Below are positions 6,241-60,429 of a DNA stretch of 64,000 bases, piece by piece. Both the position numbers and the translations under genes were made by a program. Origin of the DNA: Chlorobiaceae bacterium (lineage in GTDB: Bacteria > Bacteroidota > Chlorobiia > Chlorobiales > Chlorobiaceae); NCBI GenBank assembly GCA_016931495.1, contig JAFGER010000017.1, positions 835 through 64,834 of the forward strand. Reading direction: 5' to 3'. Below the pieces are notes generated by a model that ran no database searches, was not told the DNA's origin, and saw nothing but the letters and a program-made list of their open reading frames with translations. The first letter of the stretch is position 1; each line of letters starts with the position of its first letter.

Positions 6241-6491
6241 GAAATTGGGCTAAAGCCCTGAAATATTTTGATTTATCTATATACCCCGGACTAAAGTCCA
6301 GGGCAATTATCAAGAGTTTCAGTAGCATCCATTCATTACGGACTCTTGCGTTCATGTTGCCCCGGCTTCTTAAATTCAGGAGGGATTCATCCCGACGGAC
6401 ATTCAAATCTTACATTCTCATCTGTTGCCCCGGCTTTCATGCCGGGGATTATGGATAGAGACAAAATTAATCAGGGCTTCAGCCCAATTTC
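6241..6491. repeat. REPIN/MITE-like inverted doublet
   Basis: Unit GAAATTGGGCTAAAGCCCTGA...CCCCGGACTAAAGTCCAGGGCAATT at 6241-6310 and an inverted copy at about 6423-6491. Terminal 21-mers match at 20 of 21 positions. A third copy lies at 18851. Confidence 0.85.
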
Positions 6492-6522: not shown

Positions 6523-8703
6523 ATGCGAACACTCCGATTTTCTGCCCTCTGGAGCCTTGCTGCCCTGCTTTTTGCCCCATCAGCACTTGCCGGAAATCCG
6601 GCGAATATGGATGCGCCATCGGCCAGCACAGTCGAAACGGTGTGCGGCCAGCGCATCACCGACCCCTACCGGCCGCTTGAAAATCTCAAAGACCCGGAAG
6701 TTCAGGCCTGGTACAAGCGGCAGTCTGATCATGCGCGCGCGGTGCTCGACGCCATTCCGGGCCGCGGAGAGCTGCTCGGCAAGATGGTGGAGTTCGACAA
6801 GCGCCGTTCGGAGAAGATTTACAACCTCTCGATCACCGACAACGACCGCTACTTCTACCTCAAGCAGACGCCCGCCGACGAGACCGGCAAGCTCTTTTTC
6901 CGGCAAGGTTTCGAGGGCGAGGAGCGGCTGCTTTTCGACCCGGCGACCTGGAAAAATGGCGGCAACGGCGGCAACTTCGTCATCAGCCGGGTGTCGCCGA
7001 ACATCGACGGCTCGAAGGTGGTGATCGGCGTTTCGGCGAACGGTTCGGAAGATGCGATCCTGTTCGTCATGGAGGTCAAAAGCGGCGGCATCTGGCCGGA
7101 ACGCATCGACCGCGGACGGTTCGCCTCACCGTCGTGGCTGCCGGGCGGCAACGCTTTCTACTACACCCGCATGAACAGCAACGACCCGCTTGACCAGGAT
7201 CGGCAGAAAGACAGCCGGGTCTGGCTGCACCTCGTTGGAACCGATCCGGCGACCGACCGCGAAATTTTTTCGCGCACGCACGATCCCGAGCTGAAGATCA
7301 GGCCGGAGGACATTCCCTACGTTTCGTACGACCACAAGAGCCGCAAGCTCTATGCCTTTGTGAGCAGCGTCGATCCGCGCATCACCGCCTGGTACGCCCC
7401 CGCCGACGCAATCGGCAAGCATGAGATTCCGTGGAAGCCGCTTTTCCGCCCGGAAGACGAGGTGTACGATTTCGCGGCGACCAAACGCGACCTTTACATT
7501 TTCACCCCGAAAAACGCGCCCCGCTTCAAGGTGCTGAAAACCGCGCTCGACCGGCCCGATCTGGCGACCGCCGAAACGGTCATCGCCGAACCGGCGGAAG
7601 GCACCCTTACCAGCCTTGCGCTGACCGACAAGGGACTTTTCTACACCATCTCGACCAACGGCGTCCGCGAGGAGCTGTACCATCAGGAGTACGGCGGCAC
7701 GCAGCCGGAACGGATCGAAACTCCGTTCGAAGCGGGAACCATGTCGATCGCATCGAAAGGATTCGACAAACCGGAACTCTGGACAATCATGGGCGGATGG
7801 AACCGCGACTATCGCCGCTACCGCTACGACGTTCAACGCAACCGTTTCATCGACGAAACGCTCTCGTCGAAAGCGCGATTCCCCGAATACGACGACCTCG
7901 AAGTCCGGGAAGTGATGGTTCCATCGCACGATGGCGTCAAGGTGCCGCTGTCGCTCATCTATGATCGCGGAATGAAAAAGGATGGCAGGAATCCTGTGCT
8001 GATTTACGGCTACGGCGCATACGGCAACGCGATCACGCCCTTCTTCAGCCCGTCGCTCTTGCTGTGGACGTACAAGGGCGGCATCCTCGCCGTGGCGCAC
8101 GTGCGCGGCGGCGGCGAGCTTGGCGACGACTGGCACAAGGCTGGCCAGAAAACCACCAAGCCGAACACCTGGAAAGACCTCATCGCCTGCGCCGAATACC
8201 TCGTCAGGGAGGGCTACACCTCGCCGCAGCACATCGCCATCAACGCGGCCAGCGCTGGCGGCATCCTCGTGGGACGGGCGATGACCGAGCGCCCCGACCT
8301 CTTTGCCGCCGCCATGCCGCAGGTCGGCGTGCTCAATGCGCTGAGAGGCGAATTCAGCCCCAACGGCCCGGTCAACATTCCCGAATTCGGTACGGTCAGA
8401 AACCCGGCGGAGTGCAAGGCGCTTTTAGAAATGGATGCCTACCACCACCTCCGCGACGGCGTCAGCTACCCGGCGGCGCTCATCACCGCCGGCATCAACG
8501 ACCCGAGAGTCCCCGCCTGGCAACCCGCCAAATTCGCCGCCAGATTGCAGGAAGCCACTGCCTCCGGCAAGCCGGTACTTTTCTTCACCGACTACGAAGC
8601 GGGCCACGGCATCGGCGACATGAAAACAAAACAGTTCGAATCGCTCGCGGATATGCTCAGCTTCGGCCTGTGGCAAACCACCGGCGGCAAAGCCGCCGAA
8701 TGA
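6523..8703 (+). CDS. Secreted prolyl oligopeptidase (S9A)
   Basis: Signal peptide, DPYRPLE N-terminal motif, YGYGAYG, AHVRGGGELG, catalytic AASAGG / GINDPRV / AGHG. Confidence 0.93.
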   Translation: MRTLRFSALWSLAALLFAPSALAGNPANMDAPSASTVETVCGQRITDPYRPLENLKDPEVQAWYKRQSDHARAVLDAIPGRGELLGKMVEFDKRRSEKIYNLSITDNDRYFYLKQTPADETGKLFFRQGFEGEERLLFDPATWKNGGNGGNFVISRVSPNIDGSKVVIGVSANGSEDAILFVMEVKSGGIWPERIDRGRFASPSWLPGGNAFYYTRMNSNDPLDQDRQKDSRVWLHLVGTDPATDREIFSRTHDPELKIRPEDIPYVSYDHKSRKLYAFVSSVDPRITAWYAPADAIGKHEIPWKPLFRPEDEVYDFAATKRDLYIFTPKNAPRFKVLKTALDRPDLATAETVIAEPAEGTLTSLALTDKGLFYTISTNGVREELYHQEYGGTQPERIETPFEAGTMSIASKGFDKPELWTIMGGWNRDYRRYRYDVQRNRFIDETLSSKARFPEYDDLEVREVMVPSHDGVKVPLSLIYDRGMKKDGRNPVLIYGYGAYGNAITPFFSPSLLLWTYKGGILAVAHVRGGGELGDDWHKAGQKTTKPNTWKDLIACAEYLVREGYTSPQHIAINAASAGGILVGRAMTERPDLFAAAMPQVGVLNALRGEFSPNGPVNIPEFGTVRNPAECKALLEMDAYHHLRDGVSYPAALITAGINDPRVPAWQPAKFAARLQEATASGKPVLFFTDYEAGHGIGDMKTKQFESLADMLSFGLWQTTGGKAAE

Positions 8704-8830
8704 TGAATGATGAATTTTAAATGATGAATTGCAGGGGGTGCAGTGAAGCGCCCCTGCGCAACCATTTCCGTCCTCCGTCCACGAAGTCCACAACGTCCAC
8801 AACGTCCACCGAGTCCACTTCGTCCACGCC
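8701..8830 (+). repeat. Composite 7-mer repeat + hairpin + GTCCACnnn array
   Basis: TGATGAA-type 7-mers at 8701-8728, imperfect hairpin at 8731-8757, GTCCAC at 8777, 8786, 8795, 8804, 8813, 8822 (exact 9-bp period). Confidence 0.9.
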
Positions 8831-8833
8831 AAC

Positions 8834-9532
8834 TCAACGCCACCGCAACCACTCCAAGCGCTGCTCTTCCGGCAGCCGCTCAATGGCGTAGCGCAGCATC
8901 GTGCGCGGCATGGCGGTGGCGTGGCGGTCGAGGAAAGCTTCGAGCTGGGGCTGGTCACGCTTGCCGACTTCGCGGAGCATCCAGCCGGTTGCTTTGTGGA
9001 GCAGCTCTTCAGGGTCGGCGAGCAGGCGTTCGGCGAGGGCGAGGGTGTCGCGAAAGTCACCGTTGCGGATGAAGTGGAAGGTCGAGACGATGGCGATGCG
9101 GCGCTCCCAGAGGCTGGGCGATTCCACGAAGCGGTAGAGCGGCGTACGGTCACGCGAATCGAGATGGCGTCCGACGATGTGCGGGCAGGTGACATCGACA
9201 AGGTCCCAGTTGTTGATGCGGTCGGTGCGCTGGCAGTAGAAGTCGTACAGCGCTTCCCTGCCATGCTCATCCGACGCGCGGTAGCGCTCGATGAGCAAGA
9301 GCAGCGCCAGCATCCGGTCTTCGTGCCACGGCGAATCGAGCAGCTCCGAGATCACCTCGATTCCCGCGTGCCGGAACTCCCGGCAGAGCTTGCGCAGCAC
9401 CGGCACGCGAATGCCACGAAACCGGTCGCCCTCACCATACTCACCGGGGCCGGTCTTGAAAAAGCGCCGGAGAATCGCCGCTGTTGGAGCGTCGGCAAGG
9501 GATTCGAGGCGAGTGCGGATGTGAGCGATCAT
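8834..9532 (-). CDS. DNA alkylation repair protein (AlkD-like HEAT-repeat)
   Basis: FFKTGPGEYGEGDRFRGIRVP, INNWDLVD, LWERRIAIV, HKATGWMLREVGKRD, MPRTMLRYAIE. Confidence 0.9.
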   Translation of the reverse strand: MIAHIRTRLESLADAPTAAILRRFFKTGPGEYGEGDRFRGIRVPVLRKLCREFRHAGIEVISELLDSPWHEDRMLALLLLIERYRASDEHGREALYDFYCQRTDRINNWDLVDVTCPHIVGRHLDSRDRTPLYRFVESPSLWERRIAIVSTFHFIRNGDFRDTLALAERLLADPEELLHKATGWMLREVGKRDQPQLEAFLDRHATAMPRTMLRYAIERLPEEQRLEWLRWR

Positions 9533-9640
9533 GGTGAGTGGGGCGTTATTTGCAAAGAGTGTGTCTCGTGGAACAGATGGACCTTATAGGACAAATGGGA
9601 GTGAGAAAAGACGATGATGCAGTGTGGCGTGCTGCTTTTT

Positions 9641-9772
9641 GTAGGGGCAGGCCCCCGTGCCTGCCCGTTTGCTGCGAAATTCTGCGGCACTCCCGAAAGG
9701 GCAACCGCGAGGGTTGCCCCTACAAAATCCCGGCAACCTCGCGCAAGGGCGAACACGCAGGTTCGCCCCTAC
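9641..9772. repeat. Cluster of three GTAG-type REP palindromes
   Basis: GTAGGGGCAGGCCCCCGTGCCTGCCC (9641-9666, +), GTAGGGGCAACCCTCGCGGTTGCCC (9699-9723, -), GTAGGGGCGAACCTGCGTGTTCGCCC (9747-9772, -). Confidence 0.85.
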
Positions 9773-9790: not shown

Positions 9791-9826
9791 GTCCACCAAG
9801 TCCACCAAGTCCACGCCGTCCACAAC
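9791..9826 (+). repeat. GTCCACnnn 9-bp array
   Basis: GTCCAC at 9791, 9800, 9809, 9818. Confidence 0.9.
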
Positions 9827-9837
9827 CACCCTCTCTC

Positions 9838-11739
9838 TCACGCCAGCTCAGCCAGCTCGCCCCAGCGATCCATGTCGCTTTCGAGCTTTTCCTGAATCTT
9901 GTGCAGTTCGTCGCCCAGCCTTTGCACGGCTTCAAAATCGGTGCCAGCGTTGGCAAGTTCGGCGTTGATCGCTTCCTGACGCGTTTCGGCTTCGGCGATG
10001 GCCTGTTCGAGCTGCTCCAGTTCTCGCTTCTCCCTGCTGTTGAGTTTGCGCTGTTTTGGCGATGATGTCGGCTTCGGCGCCTCGGACACGGGTTTTGCGG
10101 TGGACGTGGGCTTCTGTTTTGCAGCCTGCTCTTCGGCGGTGGCAGCAGCTTTCATCTCCAGATAGACGCTGTAGTTGCCGGGATAGCGGCGCACGATGCC
10201 GTCGCCCTCGAAGGCGAAGATGTGCTCGACGGTGCGGTCGAGGAAGTAGCGGTCGTGGCTCACGACGACGAGGCAGCCGGGAAAGGTGTCGAGGTAATCT
10301 TCGAGCACGCGCAGGGTCGGAATGTCGAGATCGTTGGTCGGCTCGTCGAGCAGCAGCACGTTGGGGGCTCCGATGAGCTGGCGCAAGAGGTAGAGCCGCC
10401 GCCGCTCGCCGCCGGAGAGGTTGCCGATGGGGTTGTACTGCGCCGCGCCTGAAAAGAGGAACCGTTCGAGCATCTTTGCCGCCGAGACCAGCGTACCGTC
10501 CTTCGTTTTGATCTGCTCGGCCTCCTCCTTGATGTATTCGATCACGCGCTTTTCGTCGTCGAGGTGGCGGCTCTCCTGGTCGTAATAGCCGATCTTGACC
10601 GTCGGGCCGATCTCGATGCGGCCGCTGTCGGGCTTGGTGCGCCCGGCGATCATTTCGAGCAGCGTGGTCTTGCCGGAGCCGTTCGGGCCGATGATGCCGA
10701 TGCGGTCGCCCTTTTCGAGCAGGTAGTCGAACGAGCGGAGCAGCTTTTTCTCGCCCCACGATTTCGAGACGTCGTGGAACTCGACGATCTTGTTGCCGAG
10801 CCGCTCCGCGCCGAAGCCGATCTCCATCTCCTGCTTCTGCTCCTTTTTCGGGGCGTACACCAGCGCCTCGGCCCGCTGCAACCGCGCCTTCTGCTTAGTG
10901 GTGCGCGCCTTCGCTCCGGTTCGCATCCACTCCAGCTCCTGCTTGGCCAGAGCGTTGCGCTTGCGCTCGTCGCGAATCTCCTGCGCCTCTTCCTCCTCCT
11001 TCTGGACAAGGTAGCTCGCGTAGCCGCCGGTGTAGGTTTTGGCCGTTTTGCCGTCCAGCTCGATCATGCGGGTGGCGACGCGGTCGAGAAAGTAGCGGTC
11101 GTGCGTAATCAGGATCACTGCGCCAGCGTAACGCTTGATGTAATTTTCGAGCCACTCGACGCTGTCGGCATCGAGGTGGTTGGTCGGCTCGTCGAGAATG
11201 AGCGCGTCGCTCGGCACCACGAGGGCGTGCGCCAGTGCGACGCGCTTGCGCTGGCCGCCGGAGAGCGTGCCCATCTTCGCTGTCAGGTCGTTCAGGCCGA
11301 GCTTGCCGAGCACCGACTTGGCGTTCGATTCGAGATCCCACGCGCCGCTTACGTCGAGTTCGTGCGACAGGTTCGTCACCTTCTCGATCAGCGCAGCGTC
11401 GCCGTCCGACTCCTCCAGCGCCTTGAGCGCCAGCTCGTACTCGCAGATCAGCGCCATCACCTTGTCGCCCGACTTCAGCACCGCTTCGAGCACGGTATCA
11501 TCCGCGTCGTATGGCGAGACCTGCGGCAGATAGGAGATTTTCTTTTCCTTCGACACCATCACCCTTCCAGTATCGGGCGTCTCGCTCCCGGCGAGGATTT
11601 TCATCAGCGTGCTCTTGCCGCTGCCGTTCGCGCCGATGATGCCCACCTTGTCGCGGTCATCGATGCCGAACGACACCTCCGTGAACAGCGTTTTCAACCC
11701 GTATGTCTTGCCAATTCCCTCGACCGTCAGAAGAACCAT
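9838..11739 (-). CDS. uup: ABC-F family ATP-binding protein (Uup-like)
   Basis: Two ABC cassettes (GANGSGKS, LSGGQRKR; GPNGSGKT, LSGGERRR), no TM segments, C-terminal coiled coil (KLNSREKRELEQL). Confidence 0.88.
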   Translation of the reverse strand: MVLLTVEGIGKTYGLKTLFTEVSFGIDDRDKVGIIGANGSGKSTLMKILAGSETPDTGRVMVSKEKKISYLPQVSPYDADDTVLEAVLKSGDKVMALICEYELALKALEESDGDAALIEKVTNLSHELDVSGAWDLESNAKSVLGKLGLNDLTAKMGTLSGGQRKRVALAHALVVPSDALILDEPTNHLDADSVEWLENYIKRYAGAVILITHDRYFLDRVATRMIELDGKTAKTYTGGYASYLVQKEEEEAQEIRDERKRNALAKQELEWMRTGAKARTTKQKARLQRAEALVYAPKKEQKQEMEIGFGAERLGNKIVEFHDVSKSWGEKKLLRSFDYLLEKGDRIGIIGPNGSGKTTLLEMIAGRTKPDSGRIEIGPTVKIGYYDQESRHLDDEKRVIEYIKEEAEQIKTKDGTLVSAAKMLERFLFSGAAQYNPIGNLSGGERRRLYLLRQLIGAPNVLLLDEPTNDLDIPTLRVLEDYLDTFPGCLVVVSHDRYFLDRTVEHIFAFEGDGIVRRYPGNYSVYLEMKAAATAEEQAAKQKPTSTAKPVSEAPKPTSSPKQRKLNSREKRELEQLEQAIAEAETRQEAINAELANAGTDFEAVQRLGDELHKIQEKLESDMDRWGELAELA

Positions 11740-11981
11740 GCCCAATCCCGTTTAGCGCTGAAAAAGGTGCAATATAACCTAAAAGCCCGCCGATTCCCCG
11801 CTCCTGCGCAATCGGGCATCGAACACCGTTTTGCCCCGGAAGCAGCAAAGGGTTCACCGGCCGGATGTGTGGCAGATTGATCTGGTGCTGAATGGCTGAA
11901 ATGCGAAAGCCGCCCCATCCCAAGCGGTTTCAGGACGGGGCGGCGATGGGAATGGGCGGACGAAAAAGCGGTGATCTCCGC

Positions 11982-30056: not shown

Positions 30057-30158
30057 ATTTTCCGGCATCCCCATTACCTATGGACACGGTGCCAAAAGCT
30101 CTCTTGCGGGACTTGTCCCCGGAGCTTGCCGAAAGGCTTCCCGTGTCCCGTCTGTCCC
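30057..30158 (+). ncRNA. SAM-Chlorobi RNA motif
   Basis: GGACACGG/CCGTGTCC closing stem, GCTC/GAGC, GGGAC-TT-GTCCC and GCC-GAAA-GGC hairpins, directly 5' of metK-ahcY. Matches the context and recalled consensus of the published SAM-Chlorobi motif. Confidence 0.8.
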
Positions 30159-43281: not shown

Positions 43282-43329
43282 TTCCTGTAGGACTTATAGG
43301 CCCTATACGACCTATAAGTCCTACAGGAA
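43282..43329. repeat. Perfect 19-bp inverted repeat built from 9-bp CCTATA-type units
   Basis: TTCCTGTAGGACTTATAGG / CCTATAAGTCCTACAGGAA; units at 43282, 43291, 43300, 43309, 43318. Confidence 0.85.
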
Positions 43330-49765: not shown

Positions 49766-50698
49766 ATGGCTATCATCCCGAATATCACGAGCACCATCGG
49801 ACGCACACCGCTGGTGCGGCTCAACAAGCTCGCCGAGGGCCTCGAAGCCGACATTCTGCTCAAACTCGAATACTTCAACCCGCTTGGCAGCGTCAAGGAT
49901 CGCATCGGGCGAGCGATGATCGAGGCCGCCGAAGCCGAGGGAAAGATCGACGCCCGGACGCTCATCGTCGAGCCGACCAGCGGCAACACCGGCATCGCGC
50001 TCGCCTTCGTCTGCGCCCAGCGCGGCTACCGGCTGCTGCTCACGATGCCCGAAACCATGAGCGTCGAGCGGCGCAAACTGCTGCGCTACCTCGGCGCGGA
50101 GCTGGTGCTCACCCCCGGCGCACAGGGGATGAGGGGGGCGATAGAAGAGGCGGCGCGGATCGTCGAGGCCGAAAAGAACAGCTTCAACCCCGGCCAGTTC
50201 AGTAATCCGGCCAACCCCCGCATTCACCAGGCGACCACCGGCCCCGAAATCTGGAACGACACCGAGGGGCGGGTTGACATGCTCGTGGCGGGCGTCGGCA
50301 CGGGCGGCACCATCACCGGAACCTCGCGCTTTATCAAGGCGCTGAAACCCGGCTTCAAAAGCATCGCGGTCGAGCCGAAAGATTCGCCGGTGCTCTCCGG
50401 CGGCCAGCCGGGGCCACACAAAATCCAGGGGATCGGCGCAGGCTTCGTGCCCGAAGCGCTCGACGTGTCGCTGCTCGACGAGGTGGTGACGGTGAGCAAC
50501 GACGACGCCATTTCGACCGCGCGAGCGCTCGCCGCAAGCGAAGGCATCCTCTGTGGCATCTCGTCGGGCGCGGCGGTTCACGCGGCTATCGAAGTGGCCA
50601 GGCGCTCCTCGTCAGCAGGCAAAACCATCGTAGCCATCATCCCCAGCACCGGCGAGCGCTACCTCAGCACCGCGCTCTTCGAAGGCATCGAGGCGTAA
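49766..50698 (+). CDS. cysK: Cysteine synthase A
   Basis: [43 protein letters not shown]. Confidence 0.96.
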
Positions 50699-50700
50699 AA

Positions 50701-50792
50701 TGAATAATTGATAATGGATAGTTCAGGCGCGGTGATTTTCCGCGCCTTCCATTCCTGTCCACCTCGTCCACGCAGTCCACTTCGTCCACTTC
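50701..50792 (+). repeat. Composite 7-mer repeat + hairpin + GTCCACnnn array (second copy of module)
   Basis: TGAATAA|TTGATAA|TGGATAG, AGGCGCGG/CCGCGCCT hairpin at 50725-50747, GTCCAC at 50757, 50766, 50775, 50784. Confidence 0.88.
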
Positions 50793-50902
50793 TTCAAACT
50801 CCACCGCCCCACCGTTTCAACACCACCGGGGAACCTCTCTCTTTGCCGTCTTGTTTCTTTGATTATCTTTAAGTTTTTTCAGGATTTTCTTCGACGGCTG
50901 CC

Positions 50903-60021: not shown

Positions 60022-60028
60022 TACCTTG

Positions 60029-60429
60029 TGGAGATGGCGGGACTTGAACCCGCGTCCAGAACACTGCTCGATGCAGTCACCACACTCATCTCCGGTGATT
60101 GGGTTGTCGGGGGGCGATTACATCACCGGCAACGTTCGTCCCCTTATCCCGAGTTTGTACCCGCACACCCCCTCGGGCATGAATGTGCGGAGCTTACTTG
60201 CGCGAACCCGTAGGCTCAAGCGCGGGTTATGCCATCCGGCGGCTTCAGAGTAAGCGCATTCACCGCGGGACGATGGCGTCTGGGTTAACTTCTGTTAATC
60301 AGGCAGCCATTGCATACGAATAATCGTCTGCATCTATTGGTACATAGACTTGTTTAACGAGTCCGTCCATGCTGAAACTCGGAGTGCAACGACATCTCAC
60401 ACCTATCCTGTCGATAGCCTGTCATCCCC
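60029..60429 (-). ncRNA. ssrA: tmRNA
   Basis: 5' GGGGATGACAGGCTATCGAC, 3' GGGTTCAAGTCCCGCCATCTCCA; tag reading frame 60331-60299 encodes ADDYSYAMAA-stop. Confidence 0.97.

Follow-up and report, generated by a model that had tools for sequence, protein, structure and literature searches.

Three arrays of the form (GTCCACnnn)n lie within the 64,000-nt stretch analyzed here (hereafter the window), which belongs to a draft Chlorobaculum genome. The sequence GTCCACnnnGTCCAC occurs 11 times in the window, always on the + strand and always within these arrays, which comprise six units at 8777-8827, four at 9791-9823 and four at 50757-50789, whereas shuffled sequences gave a mean of 0.14 matches and a maximum of 2. 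The repeats noticed in the original prediction are therefore real, and so are the upstream parts that it described, namely AT-rich 7-mers at or just after the stop codons of POP and cysK, a GC hairpin, and a CATTC-like linker ahead of each array.

In the first module, TGATGAA-type 7-mers (8701-8730, +) begin with the POP stop codon itself (TGA, 8701-8703) and supply TGA stop codons in all three frames. They are followed by a GC hairpin (8731-8757, +; GCAGGGGG...CCCCCTGC) that is REP-like, is folded in both the MFE and the centroid structures, and has no T-run after it. The pyrimidine-rich linker gcaaCCATTTCC and a decayed unit, GTCCTCC (8770-8776), together occupy 8758-8776 (+) and lead into the six-unit right arm (8777-8827, +), which ends 6 nt before the stop codon of the convergent minus-strand gene at 8834-9532. 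As RNA, this arm is no more structured than shuffled sequence on either strand (z -0.44 and -0.26). At this locus, the module is kept in at least eight species whose coding DNA is only about 80% identical, although the hairpin sequence, unit number and spacers all differ between them. The 7-mer arm is conserved in the comparison genomes G014, G041, G002, G004, G008, G024 and G019 (G numbers denote genomes, G000 being the present one), and orthologous loci carry a different, GTAGGGG/GCAGGGG-type hairpin in the central position.

In the second module, three GTAGGGG-type REP hairpins (9641-9666, 9699-9723 and 9747-9772, +) precede the linker GTTTCATCCCCC, and the segment 9773-9823 (+) comprises linker (gacaccGTTTCATCCCCC) and the four-unit right arm, which ends 14 nt before the stop codon of the minus-strand gene at 9838-11745. 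Upon closer examination, we found that this module also has a degenerate left arm that the original prediction had missed, consisting of xGGAC units (ATGGAC, AGGAC, GGGAG, AAGAC) at a period of about 9-10 (about 9573-9612, +). The orthologous arm is expanded to a run of tandem CTTATGGGA units in a sister species (G014). The REP hairpins belong to a separate repeat family lodged between the two arms; two of the three are shared with G017 and G016, and two Y1_Tnp genes in the genome could be their RAYT. Orthologous right arms have two units in G017 and G016 and one in G019, whereas G014 and G041 carry a reversed 7-mer arm at this place.

In the third module, TGAATAA/TTGATAA/TGGATAG 7-mers (50699-50724, +) directly follow the cysK stop codon (TAA, 50696-50698), and 7-mers lie after this stop codon in G000, G020, G001, G015, G041, G008, G024 and G010. 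The segment 50726-50756 (+) contains a GC hairpin (50726-50746, with GGCGCGG and CCGCGCC arms around a tgatttt loop) and the linker TTCCATTCCT; the hairpin gives a z of -2.7 for the whole module, and sister species carry a GTAGGG-type REP hairpin in its place. The right arm (50757-50835, +) consists of the four perfect units at 50757-50789 followed by decayed units (ACTCCAC, CCCCAC, CACCAC). What had been described as a C/A-rich tail is made of such decayed units (for example, aCTCCACcgcCCCACc after 50790) plus the 3' end of the next gene. At this locus, the perfect array occurs only in this genome. G041 has the 7-mers and the decayed tail 'ttcaaactccacc' but neither hairpin nor array, so that hairpin, linker and array behave as a single indel of about 70 nt. 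No terminator-like site was scored at the hairpins of the first and third modules.

A scan of the whole genome showed that these three copies are not a private three-part module but belong to a dispersed family of 53 arrays at 42 loci, of which 20 lie between convergent genes, 21 between co-directional genes and none between divergent genes. The + strand bias of the window does not extend to the genome, where matches to the three-unit pattern split 29 forward to 23 reverse. Period 9 stands out, with 95 arrays, 58 of them intergenic, against 5-14 arrays for periods of 7, 8, 10, 11 and 13. The general layout is polar. A left arm, often within a few bases of a stop codon, is built from GTGGAC, GGGAC or AGGAC 9-mers or from stop-rich TGATGAA/TGATAAT 7-mers; a core or hairpin and a pyrimidine CATTC linker follow, and a GTCC-type right arm comes last. 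All 11 paired loci read (GTGGAC)n...(GTCCAC)n and never the reverse, which has a probability of about 5e-4 by chance. The 7-mer arms elsewhere in the genome begin between 6 nt before and 12 nt after a stop codon.

The interpretation offered in the original prediction, that of a recurrent tripartite module whose conserved architecture points to a function or to a dedicated insertion mechanism, is thus supported only in part. The order of 7-mers, hairpin, CATTC-type linker and GTCC-type array does recur beyond the window, for example at C98:12855, C106:3520, C100:3194, C26:19164 and C98:8582 (C numbers denote contigs of this genome), and the same 7-mer arm also pairs with GTCCCA or GATC-type right arms at C30:15416, C33:36334 and C56:4201. 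Yet this order is only one variant, seen at about 7 of the 42 loci. By our reading, about 14 loci pair the array with an inverted GTGGAC arm, about 8 with another GGAC-type 9-mer arm, and about 8 show no upstream part, an outcome that had been named in advance as evidence against the tripartite reading. Moreover, copy number between close genomes (G008 against G024) changes by gain or loss of whole units, as slippage would give. A CRISPR-like or polarized addition of units was rejected, because arrays share no spacer order and the differences between close genomes occur at both the outer and the inner edge. In agreement with the original prediction, we found no named element with this layout in Rfam or in the papers searched; Rfam gave nothing on the arrays, and the only nearby match was a weak, sub-threshold Chlorobi-1 hit on a REP hairpin (9630-9682).

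The original prediction missed a cognate gene. C65:2003-2596 encodes a four-helix-bundle-plus-suffix protein that scores 68.2 bits against TIGR04258 (cut-off 40), 35.2 against TIGR02436 (cut-off 24) and 33.2 against PF05635 (cut-off 33.8), the family of the DGR accessory protein Avd and of proteins encoded in 23S rRNA intervening sequences (PMC10053308). Composite arrays flank this gene on both sides, and it holds an in-frame GTCCACtgaGTCCACcaaGTCCAC, which is itself preceded by a CATTC-type linker, as are GTCCAC arrays at many other loci. The same arrays form terminal inverted repeats around every gene of this type in the genome; they measure 29 nt at 93% identity on C93, 31 nt at 87% on C52, and 48 nt at 71% plus 35 nt at 80% on C65. 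All five paralogs (on C52, C65, C93, C94 and C95) have a period-9 array within 150 nt downstream, against 7.4% of 1714 genes (P about 2e-6), and each gene copy has its own word. No further four-helix-bundle gene that could be the partner of the 7-mer arms exists in this genome.

Within the genus, the word matches the gene subtype. The five most GTCCAC-rich of the 25 genomes scanned for both words have a full-length C65-type gene at 81% identity or more that is bracketed by GTGGAC/GTCCAC, and G041, whose arrays were not included in the genome-wide counts, has one at 93%, whereas the 69-78% relatives are bracketed by, and contain, ATGGAC/GTCCAT. GTCCAT gives 43-88 hits in 6 genomes and GTCCAC 6-56 hits in 12, and no genome has both. 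Gene presence against array presence gives a 17/2/1/5 table (Fisher P = 0.002). In 16 genomes of other genera in the order, where GTCCAC but not GTCCAT was searched, we found neither the gene nor GTCCAC arrays. The hexamer stays perfect at orthologous loci while the spacers change, and the units are decayed in C. tepidum and G002, which lack the gene. The pairing extends to many other bacterial phyla: of 40 genomes holding a four-unit GTCCAC array, 23 carry the gene, against 0 of 14 control genomes, and their genes are again bracketed by inverted 9-mer arrays with their own words. Family members carry in-frame SDx/STx tripeptide repeats in the loop before the suffix domain. Searches for the motif, STRR-type repeats, Chlorobaculum repeats and the protein family found no description of this pairing in the papers we could search.

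Taken together, these observations lead us to favor, with moderate confidence, the view that the window arrays are gene-less, MITE-like members of a dispersed, polar 'nonamer-array' element family whose full-length form is a cassette of 0.7-0.85 kb, in which the arrays are terminal inverted repeats around the gene and, in the GTCCAC- and GTCCAT-type copies, also form an in-frame Ser/Thr-rich linker inside it. The layout was read directly from the sequence and the full-length form was established by comparison, whereas binding, mobility and the steps that follow are inferred. In this view, the protein is probably the sequence-specific reader of the 6-7 nt word and would bind cooperatively, as an oligomer, to words phased 9 nt apart, either on DNA or on an RNA/ssDNA fold-back. 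Arrays would be kept homogeneous and change length by unit slippage while the cognate gene is present, and would decay after its loss. Copies would persist only at gene 3' ends because they are harmless there, bringing stop codons and a hairpin with them. A precedent exists in RptR, a small four-helix protein that binds 9-bp-phased repeats with a 6-bp core (PMC12255303). Filled and empty orthologous sites point to insertion-like behavior, but at some orthologous loci the word differs between species or only the core is present, which fits in-place turnover equally well. Comparison of filled and empty sites at the C42 locus, whose borders have diverged, revealed no clear target-site duplication, and within subclades the genes sit at syntenic loci, with no sign of recent movement. 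Several exceptions weaken the correlation of gene and word: G011 has the most GTCCAT arrays (88) but no detectable gene, and G019, G014 and G017 keep 19-29 GTCCAC arrays without a C65-type gene. Furthermore, the two words follow two subclades of the genus, so that their co-variation with the gene could reflect shared descent rather than recognition. The protein is not a known transposase and shows no nuclease or recombinase signature. A phmmer search and a profile search of the PDB found nothing relevant, and a Foldseek search gave only a weak match to 2RLD, an S23 family protein (TM 0.55-0.67 on the target, E about 0.7-1.3).

Two alternatives remain possible but seem unlikely to us. The arrays could be passive, microsatellite-like DNA that arises and changes by replication slippage at gene 3' ends without a trans-acting partner, the gene merely sitting in, or attracting, repeat-prone DNA. 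The whole-unit differences between G008 and G024, long runs with identical spacers in G017 and G011, the shrinkage of arrays to nothing at some orthologous loci, and the many arrays of gene-less G011 are in line with this idea. However, slippage alone gives identical neighboring units, whereas here the hexamer is invariant and the spacers differ (27 kinds among 105 spacers), and it explains neither the strict polarity of the arms, the association with all five genes, the use of one word per genome, nor the recurrence of the gene-plus-array unit in other phyla. Alternatively, the elements could act at the RNA level as 3'-end structures, like REP elements, their two arms pairing into a long imperfect hairpin that ends or stabilizes the upstream transcript or forms an RNase III substrate as in 23S rRNA intervening sequences, with the protein as incidental cargo. 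Indeed, paired composites fold far better than shuffled sequences (z -7.3 and -7.5), all loci lie downstream of at least one gene and none in a divergent promoter gap, and in rRNA intervening sequences the gene of this family is enclosed by a stem. By contrast, the window's solitary arrays do not fold beyond chance yet keep perfect hexamers, arms built on non-complementary words are combined (7-mers with GTCCAC, GGGAC with GTCCAC), no T-run follows the module hairpins, as an intrinsic terminator would require, and a hairpin role does not explain why the reverse arm order never occurs.

We consider it very unlikely that the arrays are binding or loading sites for a universal host factor such as Rho or DnaA. 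The GTCCAC strand has one G per 9 nt, and the base before each hexamer is A or C in 96 of 105 cases, resembling a C-rich, G-poor rut site with YC dimers about 9 nt apart, and GTCCAC matches positions 3-8 of the high-GC DnaA box TTGTCCACA. However, solitary arrays between co-directional genes show no bias relative to the direction of the upstream gene (9 in GUCCAC sense, 7 in GUGGAC sense). Positions 1, 2 and 9 of the DnaA box, TT(A/G)TCCACA, are not conserved, as only 5 of 105 spacers end in TT and 40 of 105 begin with A. Sister species use GTCCAT or have no arrays at all, which a conserved essential factor would not allow.

The family shares features with several described systems but differs from each. 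Like REP/BIME/REPIN elements with their RAYT (Y1 transposase) gene, the copies are short, numerous, extragenic and concentrated after stop codons and between convergent genes, often occur as inverted pairs, and have a low-copy gene in the same genome as proposed partner. Yet a REP unit is a single imperfect palindrome of 20-40 nt with a conserved 5' tetranucleotide, whereas these arrays consist of 2-6 tandem 9-nt words with free 3-nt spacers. The gene that they flank, and within which they also lie in frame, encodes a four-helix-bundle protein rather than an HUH nuclease; the two Y1_Tnp genes are on C25 and C5, and this contrast rests on the flanks of the five four-helix-bundle genes, not on those of the Y1 genes. 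Like MITEs, the short copies keep the inverted ends of a longer gene-bearing element and are present at some orthologous sites and absent at others, but the ends are variable-length tandem arrays and the only gene in the cassette has no catalytic signature. With the ORF-bearing (S23p) intervening sequences of 23S rRNA, the family shares a PF05635/TIGR02436 gene enclosed by inverted repeats, but every locus inspected lies between protein-coding genes rather than in rRNA, the arms are phased tandem words, the protein has an extra suffix domain (TIGR04258), and dozens of gene-less copies exist. A link to diversity-generating retroelements was rejected, as no reverse transcriptase or template/variable repeat lies nearby and the single RVT_1 gene is on C58, away from all five genes. 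The RptR operator of the E. coli defense island likewise consists of 9-bp-phased direct repeats with a 6-bp core next to the gene of a small all-helical protein, which binds them cooperatively and for which two or three units suffice (PMC12255303). The RptR core, however, is a palindrome (TAGCTA), which GTCCAC is not; its site is a promoter and single in the genome, whereas this family is dispersed and none of its 42 loci lies between divergent genes; and RptR (9R2Z) was found neither by the profile search nor among the 50 matches listed in the fold search. Finally, the STRR heptamer repeats of filamentous cyanobacteria are intergenic tandem 7-mers without known function that can build hairpin arms and resemble the TGATGAA/TGATAAT arms, but the 7-mers here are AT-rich, carry stops in all three frames, begin at stop codons and serve as one arm opposite a 9-mer arm.

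PF05635/TIGR02436 proteins are widespread but are not known to have a function outside DGRs; the suffix subfamily alone comprises about 900 clusters at E <= 1e-30 in 1.84 billion representative proteins. The genus offers a natural specificity swap, GTCCAC against GTCCAT with matched gene subtypes, and with it a ready-made experiment on whether each protein binds its own word. If the pairing holds, it adds a new class to the short list of bacterial interspersed repeats with a cognate gene (REPIN-RAYT) and would explain a common source of assembly breaks and of odd Ser/Thr/Asp tripeptide linkers in annotated proteins; if it fails, these are ordinary slippage-prone repeats that can be masked. A more far-reaching possibility, which we regard as speculative and unlikely on present evidence, is that protein and arrays form a self-contained, selfish 'reader plus array' system of a kind not yet described. 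Here, an oligomeric helical protein of the Avd/rRNA-IVS family would recognize its own 6-7 nt word and also drive its writing, homogenization or spread into gene 3' ends across the genome without a transposase, and its specificity could drift (GTCCAC to GTCCAT), followed by genome-wide replacement of the arrays. This would give the family its first sequence-specific target.

The window also contains two sister arrays of period 9 that are built on other words. The array at 2680-2710 is of the GATC/GATCGG type, a word type that also flanks the zinc-ribbon subtype of the four-helix-bundle gene on C94 of this genome and in a Verrucomicrobiota genome. The array at 43295-43323 is of the CCTATA/TATAGG type, and the same word flanks the four-helix-bundle genes of G010 and G014.

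We found three arrays of GTCCAC followed by three free bases in the window, at 8777-8827 (6 units), 9791-9823 (4 units) and 50757-50789 (4 units). The two-unit pattern matches 11 times, whereas shuffled sequences give a mean of 0.14. The first array begins 73 nt after the stop codon of the prolyl-oligopeptidase (POP) gene (6523-8703, +) and ends 6 nt before the stop codon of a convergent gene (8834-9532, -). The second lies between two minus-strand genes, 14 nt from the stop codon of 9838-11745, and the third lies between cysK (49766-50698, +) and thiS (50903, +). The observation of these arrays holds, and the 7-mers, GC hairpins and CATT(T)CC linkers are positioned where the original prediction had placed them, with two corrections. 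The second array also has a degenerate left arm of xGGAC units at about 9573-9612 that had been missed, and the ‘C/A-rich tails’ are decayed units plus the end of the next gene.

Upon examination of the whole draft genome (G000; 2.25 Mb, 58% GC, genus Chlorobaculum), in which the window is C37:835-64834, it became clear that these arrays belong to a dispersed family, with 53 arrays of two or more units at 42 loci on both strands. A scan of all periods showed that 9 is special, yielding 95 arrays, of which 58 are intergenic and nearly all GTCC-type, against 5-14 arrays for periods 7, 8, 10, 11 and 13. Arrays of periods 6 and 12, by contrast, are almost all coding. Other words occur with the same period, namely GTCCCA, GTCCT, GATCGG and CCTATA. 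Two such arrays lie in the window, one of GATCAGATC/GATCGG type at 2680-2710 and one of CCTATA type at 43295-43323, and in other genomes these words flank other subtypes of the four-helix-bundle gene described below.

To place the arrays relative to genes, we used our own gene caller, which recovers the known genes of the window. Twenty loci lie between convergent genes, 21 between co-directional genes and none between divergent genes. Eleven loci are pairs, and all of them read (GTGGACnnn)n, core, (GTCCACnnn)n on either strand, with none showing the opposite order. Solitary arrays display no bias relative to the upstream gene (9 to 7). However, those in GTGGAC sense lie within 3-14 nt of a stop codon at five of seven loci, whereas those in GTCCAC sense lie 15-130 nt beyond it (median about 58 nt), as would be given by the left and right arms of one layout. 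By our reading of the loci, the other arm is an inverted GTGGAC array at about 14 loci, another GGAC-type 9-mer array at about 8, an AT-rich 7-mer array at about 7, and only a hairpin, or nothing visible, at the rest. The 7-mer arms start between 6 nt before and 12 nt after stop codons, often supply the stop itself, and carry stops in all three frames. They also pair with GTCCCA or GATC-type right arms, often with a REP or terminator hairpin in between. At many loci the right edge of the core is a pyrimidine-rich CATTC/CTTC linker. The predicted tripartite order of 7-mers, hairpin and array is therefore real, but its interpretation as a module in its own right is only partly supported, as it represents one variant of a general arm, core/hairpin, arm design.

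The REP hairpins of GTAGGGGC...GCCCCTAC type at 9641-9666, 9699-9723 and 9747-9772, and also the hairpin at 8731-8757, form a separate dispersed family that lodges between the arms of the array elements, and at orthologous loci the hairpin at the same place differs in sequence. Two Y1_Tnp genes in G000 (contig positions C25:604-942 and C5:30957-31202) could be their RAYT. A weak match to the Rfam family Chlorobi-1 RNA at 9630-9682 (-), with 19 bits against a gathering score of 50 (E 0.045), overlaps the first of these hairpins, suggesting that the Chlorobi-1 model may resemble this REP family.

The hexamers and their spacers differ in how they vary. Of 105 internal spacers, seven triplets (CAA, AAA, AAC, TTC, AGC, CTC and TCA) make up 69%. 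The base before each hexamer is A or C in 96 cases and G in one, and the spacer set is not closed under reverse complement. Arrays contain 2 units (22 arrays), 3 (14), 4 (14), 5 (2) or 6 (1). When folded as RNA, paired composites fold far better than shuffles (z -7.3 and -7.5). By contrast, the module after the POP gene does not (z -0.44 and -0.26), and the module after cysK does so only through its GC hairpin (z -2.7). The presence of perfect hexamers in arms that have no complementary partner argues that pairing is not what keeps them.

One array lies inside an ORF, C65:2003-2596, encoding a 197-aa protein that matches TIGR04258 (four-helix-bundle suffix domain, 68 bits) and TIGR02436/PF05635 (four-helix-bundle or 23S rRNA intervening-sequence protein). 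PF05635 has been linked to the DGR protein Avd (PMC10053308). The in-frame array encodes the linker SSTESTKST between the bundle and the suffix, and complete GTGGAC/GTCCAC composites flank the gene on both sides. The genome contains exactly five paralogues and no other four-helix-bundle gene. All five have a period-9 array within 150 nt downstream, against 7.4% of 1714 genes (P about 2e-6), and each has its own word: GTCCCA (on contig C95), AGGAC/GTCCT (C93), GGGAC/GTCCC (C52), GTGGAC/GTCCAC (C65), and GATCGG for the zinc-ribbon subtype (C94). Three are enclosed by true terminal inverted repeats built of these units, measuring 29 nt at 93%, 31 nt at 87%, and 48 nt at 71% plus 35 nt at 80%. An AlphaFold model of the C95 protein is all-helical (pLDDT 83), and its only meaningful PDB neighbor is 2RLD of the S23 family, to which the match is weak.

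The genus offers a natural experiment on the relation between word and gene. Arrays of three GTCCAC units number 6-56 in 12 genomes and GTCCAT arrays number 43-88 in six others, whereas no genome has both and seven have neither. A full-length C65-type gene at 81% identity or more occurs in the five most GTCCAC-rich of the 25 genomes scanned for both words, and also in G041, a further genome whose arrays were not counted genome-wide. In these it is always bracketed by GTGGAC/GTCCAC, and it carries an in-frame GTCCAC linker in five of the six, G041 being the one that lacks it. By contrast, the 69-78% relatives in genomes G012, G003 and G018 are bracketed by ATGGAC/GTCCAT and contain the same word in frame. 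In G022 the gene fragments lie between GTCCAT arrays, and G006, which was left out of this comparison of flanks, has partial matches. Gene presence against array presence gives a 17/2/1/5 table (Fisher P = 0.002, not corrected for shared descent), and the 16 genomes of other genera in the order have neither the gene nor GTCCAC arrays. There are exceptions to this pattern: G011 has 88 GTCCAT arrays and no gene, although its arrays often sit at contig ends, such that the roughly 0.7 kb cassette may be unassembled, and G019 (probably C. thiosulfatiphilum DSM 249), G014 and G017 keep 19-29 GTCCAC arrays without a C65-type gene. Assemblies often break or carry N-runs at these arrays (G001 C15/C79, G011 C99:5-46 and C51:138-225, and locus L182 of G010), and draft genomes therefore probably under-count both the arrays and the short cassette gene.

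Exact 4-unit GTCCAC arrays also occur in Lentisphaeria, Sumerlaeota, Hydrogenedentota, Desulfobacterales, Acidobacteriota, Verrucomicrobiota, Planctomycetota, Myxococcota, Parachlamydiaceae and others, where they often form the same inverted pairs right after stop codons, although some hits, for example locus L065, are coding repeats. Of 40 such genomes, 23 carry TIGR04258 above its cut-off, against 0 of 14 control genomes. Their genes are again bracketed by inverted 9-mer arrays with their own words: ATGGGAA/TTCCCAT, ATAGGAC/GTCCTAT, AACGAC/GTCGTT, and, for the zinc-ribbon subtype in Verrucomicrobiota (locus L167), ATCCG/CGGAT beside GATC, which resembles the G000 C94 word. This subtype of the four-helix-bundle-plus-suffix protein, found at G000 C94:22348-23184 (-) and at L167, carries a C-terminal C4 zinc-ribbon (CPKCGxPMVLRTAKxGxNAGQQFWGCTGYPxC), and in both phyla it is followed by these related arrays. 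In Candidatus Sumerlaeia (locus L007, 4864-5352), five tandem copies of a composite of about 90 nt each have a GTCCAC arm followed by GTGGAC units, so the element itself is tandemly amplified. The protein family has 937 clusters at E <= 1e-30, and its members show in-frame SDx/STx tripeptide runs exactly in the loop before the suffix.

Comparison of orthologous loci shows how the elements turn over. At the POP locus, the module is present through the GTCCAC subclade with 2-6 units, different spacers and different hairpins. It is decayed in C. tepidum and in genome G002, which lack the gene, and GTCCAT-clade species have a plain hairpin there instead. At the cysK locus, the 7-mers are shared by eight species, but the hairpin, linker and array block of about 70 nt is unique to this genome. 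At a locus on contig C42, the composite is present in eight species and absent from five, in which the two convergent genes abut, and comparison of these sites revealed no clear target duplication. Of two further loci, one shows a different word at the same place in other species, and at the other C. tepidum keeps only the core. Close genomes differ by whole units. Insertion and deletion of whole blocks and unit slippage both occur, and in-place replacement of words cannot be excluded. In the sister genomes G019, G024, G002, G004 (taken here as C. tepidum TLS) and G014, the cysK-thiS gap (loci L241, L242, L244, L245 and L247) holds a MITE-like insert of about 250 nt with GGGCTAAAGCCC and CCCCGGACTGAAGTCCGGGG hairpins. 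This insert is absent from G000 at this site and looks like the REPIN-like doublet at 6241-6491 of the window.

Taken together, the sequence comparisons establish the family and its polar layout, its restriction to gene 3' ends, the cassette form with the four-helix-bundle gene, and the co-variation of word and gene subtype. That the protein reads the phased word, and that the arrays in the window are non-autonomous derivatives of the cassette, are our inferences from these patterns. RptR of E. coli, a small four-helix protein that binds three 9-bp-phased repeats with a 6-bp core cooperatively (PMC12255303), shows that this geometry can be read by a small helical protein. It is, however, not a detectable homologue, its core is palindromic, and its site is a promoter. 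In the literature we searched, we found no published description of the pairing of this gene with the arrays. Less probable alternatives are that the arrays reflect pure slippage, act as an RNA 3'-end hairpin, or serve as Rho or DnaA sites, of which the last two fail direct tests.

Lastly, an Rfam search of the window also identified, above gathering score, a SAM-Chlorobi riboswitch at 30063-30150 (+) and the tmRNA gene at 60026-60429 (-), both of which are ordinary features.
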